Part shown: in pieces, positions 9,097 to 10,231 of the stretch
Layout of the letters: each line of letters begins with the position of its first letter
How positions within the stretch are numbered: position 1 is the stretch's first letter
Source: an uncultured archaeon
GTDB taxonomy: Archaea; Asgardarchaeota; Jordiarchaeia; Jordiarchaeales; Jordiarchaeaceae
Reading direction: 5' to 3'
DNA: 32,000 nt
Assembly: GCA_964510585.1 (NCBI GenBank)
Contig: CAZECW010000072.1
Coordinates: 1 to 32,000 of the forward strand
Notes under the pieces: model-generated
Told to the model about the DNA's origin: nothing
The model's database searches: none
What the model saw: the letters and a program-made list of their open reading frames with translations, nothing else
Program-made: the position numbers and the translations under genes

Positions 9097-9189
9097 GGGC
9101 GTATGGTCTAGCGGTTATGACACCGCGCTTACACCGCGGTAATTCCTTTTTCGGGAGCCGAATCCCCGGTTCGAATCCGGGTACGCCCA
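9097..9189 (+). tRNA. tRNA-Val(TAC) with a 20-nt BHB intron in the variable loop (9143-9162)
   Basis: GGGCGTA/TACGCCC acceptor stem, CCGCG CT TAC AC CGCGG anticodon arm (TAC 9130-9132), CCCGG TTCGAAT CCGGG T arm, A73. The 20 extra nt form a BHB: CGGT/GCCG helix, AA|T bulges, TCCT/GGGA outer helix. CCA is not encoded (CCT). Confidence 0.95.
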
Positions 9190-9632
9190 CCTATACATTT
9201 CGTCTTTTGTTGGTAAATCAAATAGAGAGTATTTTGAACTGTGTTTAATTTGTTGCAATCTTATCTTTCCATCTAAGTTTTGTCCTCCTCTTTTTTCGGG
9301 TTATGCTTAGAAATGTAGTCTCCACCAGTAAAAACAAATGAAATTGCATTTTGGAAGAAACAGAGGTTAAAACCTTGCCTCATAATGATTTAGACCTCCA
9401 TACTGTGCTCAAAAAATCTGTAGGGCGTACTTTGCTAGCACCTCAAACTCTGGAAAAATCTTCAAAAAATACCAGATCTCAAATAGAGAGTAATTTAGAC
9501 TAATCCAGAAATTCGTTCAAGAAAATACGGGCCGCCTGCCAATGTGTTCTAAGGAAAACCATAATGGAAATGAGAATAGGTAACCAGACAAATATGGTAA
9601 AGGTCAGATTAGAGTAACCAAACGTTACTTAC

Positions 9633-9911
9633 AAAACCTTGGCGAGAAAGCCCCCGACTTCAAGTCGTGGGGATGAATCGCCAAAAAAGTTTATTTGAAA
9701 GTAGGGTACATAAATAGTTGTTGGTAGCTGAAGGGTTTGGCTTGGGCTTAAGAGGCTAAACAAGACGCAGCCCCCATGAGGGTGCCAACATAGACGCCGT
9801 TCCCTTTGAGGGAAGGGCGTGCTAACTGGGTGATGGCACACCCATTGCTTCGAAGGCTCCCGATGAGCCAGAAGCAAGAATCTCCCGACTTCAAGTCGCG
9901 GAGAGTGTCAA
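9633..9911 (+). mobile_element. Non-autonomous IS200/IS605 (IS608-type) element with no tnpA or tnpB (MITE/PATE-like)
   Basis: Target TTAC at 9629-9632. Left guide AAAG (9647-9650) precedes the bulged hairpin CCCC-CGAC-TTCAA-GTCG-T-GGGG (9651-9672). Right guide GAAT (9878-9881) precedes the hairpin CTCC-CGAC-TTCAA-GTCG-C-GGAG (9882-9903). Terminal TCAA at 9908-9911. These match the IS608 AAAG/TTAC and GAAT/TCAA guide/cleavage pairs. In-silico excision restores an in-frame CTG TAA end for rpsJ. Confidence 0.9.
9654..9898 (+). repeat. 14-nt direct repeat CCGACTTCAAGTCG at 9654-9667 and 9885-9898 (subterminal palindromes of the element)
   Basis: Identical sequence in both end hairpins. Confidence 0.9.
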
Positions 9912-9931
9912 AGAAGCTCAACTTCAATATA
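9735..9931 (+). ncRNA. Putative TnpB omega-RNA (reRNA) scaffold plus about 20 nt of flanking guide
   Basis: Consecutive well-paired hairpins at 9767-9785, 9794-9820, 9827-9844, 9845-9877 and the right-end hairpin 9882-9903. The translation ...GRANWVMAHPLL...KQESPDFKS resembles a tnpB 3' tail. The 5' boundary is a guess. Confidence 0.65.
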
Positions 9932-10231
9932 AACATCTTCAGGTACTCGGATACGCATAATCTGTCTTAATGTTCTTTCGTCTGCATCAAGATCAATTAA
10001 TCTTTTGTGGATCCTGATTTCCCACCTTTCCCACGTTGCATTACCCTCTCCACTGGGGCTTTTGCGAACAGGAACTCTTAACCTTTTAGTAGGGAGGGGA
10101 ACTGGCCCTGACATACGAATCCCGGTCTTTTGTGTAATGTTTTTAACTTGGTCACATATCGTGTCTAGCTTCGATGGATTGGTTCCAGAAAGCCTAATTC
10201 TAGCCTTTTGCACCACAACTTGTCCATCCAA
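9908..10231 (-). CDS. rpsJ: 30S ribosomal protein uS10; stop codon supplied by the IS element end
   Basis: KARIRLSG...[10 protein letters not shown]...[24 protein letters not shown]...VYIEVEL. Confidence 0.97.

Follow-up and report, generated by a model that had tools for sequence, protein, structure and literature searches.

The window (the whole stretch of 32,000 nt that was analysed) belongs to assembly G000, an Asgard genome of the Freyarchaeia/Jordarchaeia (3.78 Mb in 217 contigs, 41.7% GC). On its minus strand it carries rpsJ (rps10), encoding ribosomal protein uS10, a gene present in a single copy (one match in the genome). The 3' end of rpsJ was found to be occupied by a 279-nt element of the IS200/IS605 type, the features of which are collected in Table 1. 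On the plus strand, the left and right junctions (marked by slashes) read ...GTTACTTAC/AAAACCTTGG...GAGAGTGTCAA/AGAAGCTC..., or, in a second rendering, ...GTTACTTAC/AAAACCTTGGCGAGAAAG...GAGAGTGTCAA/AGAAGCTCAAC.... With the element in place, rpsJ ends in GAG CTT CTT TGA on the minus strand, and deletion of 9633-9911 restored the end GAG CTT CTG TAA. Read as its reverse complement, the TTAC tetranucleotide directly before the element comprises the ancestral rpsJ stop codon and, in front of it, the closing G of the final Leu codon. Element sequence now supplies both the TGA stop (9908-9910) and position three of that Leu codon (9911). The insertion exchanged G-TAA for T-TGA on the opposite strand; at rpsJ this exchange was silent (Leu CTG to Leu CTT), and the uS10 protein was left unchanged, with E-L-L-stop at its end before and after.

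The ancestral 3' flank of rps10, TAA-GTAAC-GTTTG-GTTAC (window 9614-9632 and the empty sites of sister genomes), is a small inverted repeat with two TTAC/GTAAC motifs. Of these, insertion took place at the TTAC that overlaps the stop codon and not at the one located 4 nt upstream on the plus strand. A tRNA-Val(TAC) gene of 95 nt was observed at 9097-9191 (+), between rps10 and the TFE gene. It exceeds the standard tRNA length, so it probably contains an intron.

Table 1. Features at the 3' end of rpsJ and within the inserted element (window positions).
Feature	Position	Strand	Description
TTAC target / left cleavage tetranucleotide	9629..9632	+	Sequence; reverse complement is G+TAA
Non-autonomous IS200/IS605 (IS608-like) element, PATE/MITE without tnpA or tnpB	9633..9911	+	279 nt; repeat family
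Left-end structure	9639..9684	+	Outer stem 9639-9645 / 9678-9684
AAAG guide tetranucleotide	9647-9650	+	Directly 5' of left hairpin
Left subterminal imperfect hairpin, bulged T	9651-9672	+	ssDNA fold
TATA-box-like motif	9707..9716	+	TACATAAATA here; TATATAAATA in family consensus
Right-end half	9771..9911	+	tnpB 3' end remnant and strongly folding RNA region
GAAT	9878-9881	+	Directly 5' of right hairpin
Right-end hairpin	9882-9903	+	ssDNA fold
Terminal TCAA	9908-9911	+	Sequence
rpsJ / rps10 (uS10)	9908..10231	-	107 aa; Pfam PF00338 Ribosomal_S10, E 2.6e-31
Flank 3' of right end	9912..9931	+	Last ~6 codons of rpsJ, antisense

The element has no terminal inverted repeats and carries subterminal imperfect hairpins at both ends. 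The hairpin is a direct repeat (9648-9673 and 9879-9904), lying on the same strand at the two ends and containing a bulged base. The left end was predicted to fold as single-stranded DNA with -14.9 kcal/mol (z -4.17). The guide tetranucleotides AAAG and GAAT were present 5' of the hairpins, as IS608-type ends require; GAAT is the right guide of IS608, pairing with TCAA. In IS608, cleavage takes place at TTAC and TCAA, which are recognised by guide tetranucleotides situated on the 5' side of the hairpin feet; the left one, for TTAC, is AAAG (PMC3201880).

A remnant of the tnpB C-terminus was recognised in the plus frame of the right half, reading ..NWVMAHPLL.. as compared with ..NWVVAHPLL.. in the TnpB-containing ORF on contig C81. 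The right half was also predicted to fold strongly as RNA (-66 kcal/mol, z -4.96 vs shuffles). Judged by its position and by analogy with published PATE-like elements that retain omega-RNAs (PMC10055086), this half is most likely the scaffold of a TnpB omega-RNA (guide RNA). Searching Rfam at gathering and permissive thresholds returned no family for the element, the sole match being a chance one (E 2.9). The TATA-like box is a possible archaeal promoter for the structured RNA downstream of it. According to the IS200/IS605 TnpB model (PMC10055086), the flank 3' of the right end would serve as the guide of an omega-RNA produced from the rps10 copy, and this RNA, together with a compatible TnpB, would cut the restored TTAC-flanked empty site.

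The pattern at rpsJ is not due to chance, as the element is repeated throughout G000: 29 copies were complete, and the left end was found 91 times and the right end 72 times. Three further right ends belong to a variant subfamily, giving a total of 75, and the right-end pattern itself occurred 66 times. All 72 right ends read ...GGAGAGTGTCAA, finishing GTGTCAA. TTAC preceded 86 of the 91 left ends, and 4 more were preceded by it after a register shift of 1 nt. Beyond TTAC, T was found at position -5 in 51 of 91 sites; at position +1, A was found in 41 of 72 sites and G in 1 of 72, as compared with 29% A and 21% G in the genome. Identity of the full copies to their consensus was 90-98.6%, and this indicates that the family expanded recently, to about 80-90 copies. 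In about 60 copies the sequence breaks off at a contig end, leaving one readable flank each, and more than 60 contig ends of G000 stop 135-141 nt inside a copy. The 279-nt repeat is the main cause of the fragmentation of the G000 assembly and accounts for most of its contig breaks.

Outside G000, the right-end pattern was found 1-3 times in each of the related genomes G001, G003 and G004; of 400 genomes searched, three more Asgard genomes, from two other genera, had it 1-2 times. These numbers are too small to extend the enrichment test. Compensatory changes in the right hairpin, GACTT..AGTC to GGCTT..AGCC and CTCC..GGAG to CCCC..GGGG, were observed across G000, G001, G003, G004, G036, G135 and G137. 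Such double changes fit selection on the DNA hairpin. The element represents a new IS608-type family of palindrome-associated transposable elements (PATEs), hosted by an Asgard archaeon.

Full-length relatives of the element are also present in G000. Full-length elements on contigs C7, C162, C169, C42, C49 and C15 have the initial ~62 nt of their left end in common with the 279-nt element; these are followed by a Y1_Tnp gene (E 9e-35) and, after it, by the N-terminus of tnpB (HTH_OrfB_IS605). On C7, C162 and C169, the Y1_Tnp ORF lies directly after a left end with these shared ~62 nt. The best solved-structure match of the resident TnpA was the ISHp608 transposase (2a6m, E 1.6e-28), and the HUH motif and the position of Tyr127 were aligned. 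The 279-bp copies are presumably mobilised in trans by this TnpA, as implied by the presence of ~90 near-identical copies and by the strain-polymorphic insertion described below. An intact tnpB matching this right end was not found in the assembly, where contigs end inside the gene and the C7 copy looks frameshifted. Of the matching tnpB, C169 carries the N-terminal part (HTH_OrfB_IS605), and C81 contains a related fusion. The latter (C81:5072-6745, minus strand; locus L034:211-1884) is a 557-aa ORF fusing Y1_Tnp, OrfB_IS605 and the TnpB zinc-ribbon domain. It extends to the terminal nucleotide of the right end (..GAG TGT CAA), and its TGA stop comes from flanking DNA; the C-terminus encoded by this ORF therefore depends on the site of the element.

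The empty site was found in G001 and G004, which represent two sister species of the same genus (Ca. Freyarchaeota SQRJ_82 and Ca. Jordarchaeia QZM_A3). Both genomes are colinear with the two flanks in the window, and uS10 shares 97% amino-acid identity with their orthologues. In both, TTAC is joined directly to the right flank, and rps10 ends in GAG CTT CTG TAA GTAACGTTTGGTTAC. In a more distant complete genome of the genus, rps10 ends in TTA TAA, and hence no TTAC exists there. The locus was also compared with public hot-spring metagenome contigs from runs X1, X3, X4 and X6. Contigs of 7.1 kb (X4) and 7.3 kb (X6) contained the empty allele, with 9632 joined to 9912 and exactly 9633-9911 skipped. 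Contigs from X1 led from unique flank into the element at both junctions, and a contig from X3 crossed the rpsJ-side junction, in all cases with zero flank mismatches. Occupied and empty alleles coexist among populations that differ at this locus by a few bases per several hundred.

The description of the locus in the first-pass annotation was confirmed. It had placed an element after TTAC at 9633-9911, ending in TCAA within the last codon of rpsJ, and this was exact to the base; its assignment to the IS608 type, with a TTAC target, a TCAA end and no target duplication, agrees with the left ends counted above and with the precise empty sites. The empty allele that it had predicted, CTG TAA GTAAC, was matched in G001 and G004, and the X4 and X6 contigs also skip the element.

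Among the six genomes of the genus, the 279-nt form was found only in G000; it was sought in the five others and was absent. Because the family is missing from the other genomes of the genus, the empty state is ancestral and is not a product of excision, and the alternative of ancestral presence followed by precise excision in the relatives was rejected. It was also considered that a repeat-induced chimeric join might have put a MITE copy beside rps10, as the assembly is heavily broken at this very repeat. However, both flanks are syntenic with the empty site of the sister genomes, so the junction is no assembly chimera, and independent metagenome contigs cross both junctions (X1) or the rpsJ-side junction (X3). 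Such an artefact retains practically no probability and was rejected. The 279-bp insertion at rpsJ is real, recent and strain-polymorphic.

To count landings on stop codons, genes were called crudely as ORFs of 100 aa or more (3,131 genes, 78% coding). G000 contains 26,770 TTAC sites; 6,648 of them lie outside genes, and 238 coincide with the G-TAA ends of genes on the opposite strand. One of the 75 right ends was located on a stop codon (95% interval 0.03-7.2%), as compared with an expectation of 0.7 if all TTAC sites are equal and of 2.6 if survival is restricted to non-genic sites. When the preferences for T at -5 and A at +1 were weighted in, the expectation stayed at 0.7-2.6. Strong enrichment at stop codons is excluded by this count, and enrichment of two-fold over neutral sites, or up to about eight-fold over all TTAC sites, remains compatible with it. 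The opposite strand was also read at each of the 75 right ends in the frame of the TGA of the element. A long ORF in this frame was found only at the rps10 copy (117 codons); the next longest frames had 69, 57, 51 and 50 codons, and their number was about that predicted by chance. Open frames of 49-69 codons at C11, C146, C216, C165 and C101 were rejected as genes because of this chance number and, in one case, overlap by a longer ORF. The last codon was four-fold degenerate in 53 of the 238 candidate gene ends, and a fully silent landing was expected 0.2-0.6 times in the family of the 279-nt element. One such landing is unremarkable.

In the first-pass annotation, replacement of stop codons had been proposed as an insertion strategy, to be tested by the enrichment of insertion sites at stops relative to all TTAC sites. 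The count does not bear this out, and the rps10 copy is to be regarded as a single lucky survivor, the outcome that the annotation itself had named for a lack of enrichment. The idea is also not as new as had been assumed there. No paper presenting stop-codon replacement by IS200/IS605 elements as a strategy was found in the open-access literature searched, but the overlap of MITEs with the 3' ends of genes has been described (PMC5896051, PMC2775950).

The surroundings of the other copies were studied as well. None of the full copies with both flanks was located mid-gene. Several copies were located 4, 5, 14, 22 or 23 codons before the original stop, the tail of the gene being replaced by element-encoded residues; one of the genes with a replaced tail was a complete DUF1152 gene. 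ORFs of at least 100 codons adjoined 16 of the 72 right ends and 11 of the 91 left ends. A gamma-glutamyltranspeptidase gene was cut by a copy at profile position 312 of 512, with positions 2-312 left (C153:120-1178, locus L137), and a P-type ATPase gene was cut inside the hydrolase domain (C17:2777-4370, locus L134). A stop swap is unnecessary for tolerance, as other copies replace gene tails or disrupt genes. It appears as one end of a continuum that is produced by random TTAC insertion and filtered by selection. In the case of the small, highly conserved and essential uS10, the exact position of the stop may be the only tolerated site.

The state of the locus is very probably explained by the recent, polymorphic insertion of an IS608-like PATE into the rps10 stop codon, as a chance result of the insertion rule and not of targeting. 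The resident ISHp608-like Y1 (HUH) TnpA of the full-length relatives would mobilise the 279-bp element in trans, its single-stranded circle being inserted on the 3' side of any TTAC and no target being duplicated. In the case of rps10, the TTAC hit by chance is the complement of the closing G plus TAA. Since the obligatory right end TCAA reads T plus TGA on the gene strand, CTG TAA became CTT TGA with uS10 unchanged, and the copy would persist because it is neutral for the protein. The new rps10 3' UTR is presumably neutral as well. Stop-type sites are hit about as often as random choice of TTAC and purifying selection predict, and there was no sign of an evolved preference for stop codons.

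It could be proposed instead that IS608-type elements prefer opposite-strand G-TAA stops, including those of essential genes, because the TTAC/TCAA code rebuilds the stop. The sequence logic is indeed valid for any gene ending in G-TAA, and G000 offers 238 such ends, 53 of them four-fold degenerate. However, one of 75 right ends at a stop does not exceed the expected 0.7-2.6, and other copies land inside gene ends or disrupt genes. Moreover, TnpA recognises the tetranucleotide alone, via guide pairing (PMC3201880), and since nothing but the tetranucleotide is read, no mechanism is known by which a reading frame could be sensed. A preference of this kind is considered quite improbable, although the present genome is compatible with a modest one, up to ~2-fold over neutral sites. 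In a broader form, IS608-type elements throughout the prokaryotes would repeatedly find a safe harbour at opposite-strand G-TAA stops, a niche favoured by selection, with TTAC and TCAA kept partly as complements of stop codons. This is judged to be very unlikely; if it were true, the niche would let the elements and TnpB guides reside at the ends of essential genes and guard them without splicing.

The element might also have been recruited for a function at rps10, either as an omega-RNA that has the last rps10 codons as its guide and works with TnpB, or through convergent transcription regulating uS10. In the TnpB variant, loss of the element would be lethal through cutting of the restored TTAC plus target in an essential gene. 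The TnpB homing model and PATEs that bear omega-RNA are published (PMC10055086), and in this variant TnpB would be predicted to cleave TTAC+AGAAGCTCAACTTCAA. The strong folding of the right half and the TATA-like box upstream, from which transcription would read into the rps10 end, are consistent with such a role. In addition, the rps10 transcript must run antisense through the element before it meets the first T6 tract, located about 225 nt downstream. Nevertheless, all ~80 copies share this architecture whatever the neighbouring gene, so that nothing in it is specific to rps10; the intact matched tnpB was not found in the assembly; and the empty allele persists in closely related strains, which means that the element is dispensable. 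Recruitment is therefore held to be very improbable, and chance insertion into the stop codon remains the preferred explanation.

No new mechanism is revealed by the rps10 copy, and the landing on stop codons at chance rate in this genome is a useful negative result. The copy provides a base-perfect natural example in which the IS200/IS605 code puts an element on the stop of an essential, universally conserved gene while the protein is unchanged, and natural populations have kept both the occupied and the empty rps10 alleles. The recent expansion, in an Asgard archaeon, of a mini-transposon that putatively bears a guide RNA matters for the assembly and annotation of such genomes. Barring a contrary multi-genome count, similar stop landings are best read as a by-product of AT-rich, stop-like targets and purifying selection.

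The element closely resembles IS608 (ISHp608) of Helicobacter pylori. Like IS608, it inserts 3' of TTAC, ends in TCAA and makes no duplication; it has AAAG and GAAT 5' of the hairpin feet and subterminal imperfect hairpins with a bulged base; and the resident TnpA matches the ISHp608 transposase, with HUH and the catalytic Tyr conserved. The spacing is slightly different, with 18 nt from TTAC to the left hairpin and 8 nt from the right hairpin to the end, as compared with 19 and 10 in IS608 (PMC3201880). Unlike IS608, the element resides in an Asgard archaeal host and is a 279-bp derivative without tnpA or tnpB, and in one full-length relative (C81), TnpA and TnpB are fused in a single ORF.

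PATEs were described in Haloquadratum walsbyi (PMC3119063), and PATE-like mini-elements bearing omega-RNA were described in Geobacillus stearothermophilus (PMC10055086). The element shares their organisation: it is an ORF-less fusion of IS605-type left and right ends without inverted terminal repeats or target duplication, it forms a homogeneous high-copy family with strain-specific insertions, and its right half matches the 3' end of tnpB and would include the guide-RNA region. Compared with these PATEs, it is a new sequence family in a different phylum, with ~80-90 copies in one 3.8-Mb genome, and landing on a stop codon is not discussed in the accessible parts of the two papers.

Small elements over the 3' ends of genes are known from bacteria. 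In Coxiella, QMITE1/2 extend over the final 1-50 bp of functional genes, and the protein size is not materially altered (PMC5896051), and in Borrelia, IS605 stem-loops overlap the end of a lipoprotein gene (PMC2775950); the authors attributed such overlap to the tolerance of C-termini (PMC5896051, PMC2775950). The rps10 copy is likewise a small non-autonomous element over a gene 3' end with the protein length kept. However, the Coxiella MITEs are inverted-repeat elements with another transposition chemistry, whereas here the stop codon is replaced base for base as a consequence of the TTAC/TCAA code of a Y1 transposase. A further comparison may be made with IStrons, chimeras of a group I intron and an IS605-type element (PMC4227781), which also combine mobility of the IS200/IS605 type with a means of being harmless inside genes. 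IStrons need RNA splicing for this, whereas the rps10 element is unspliced and is harmless by landing on a stop codon and supplying another.
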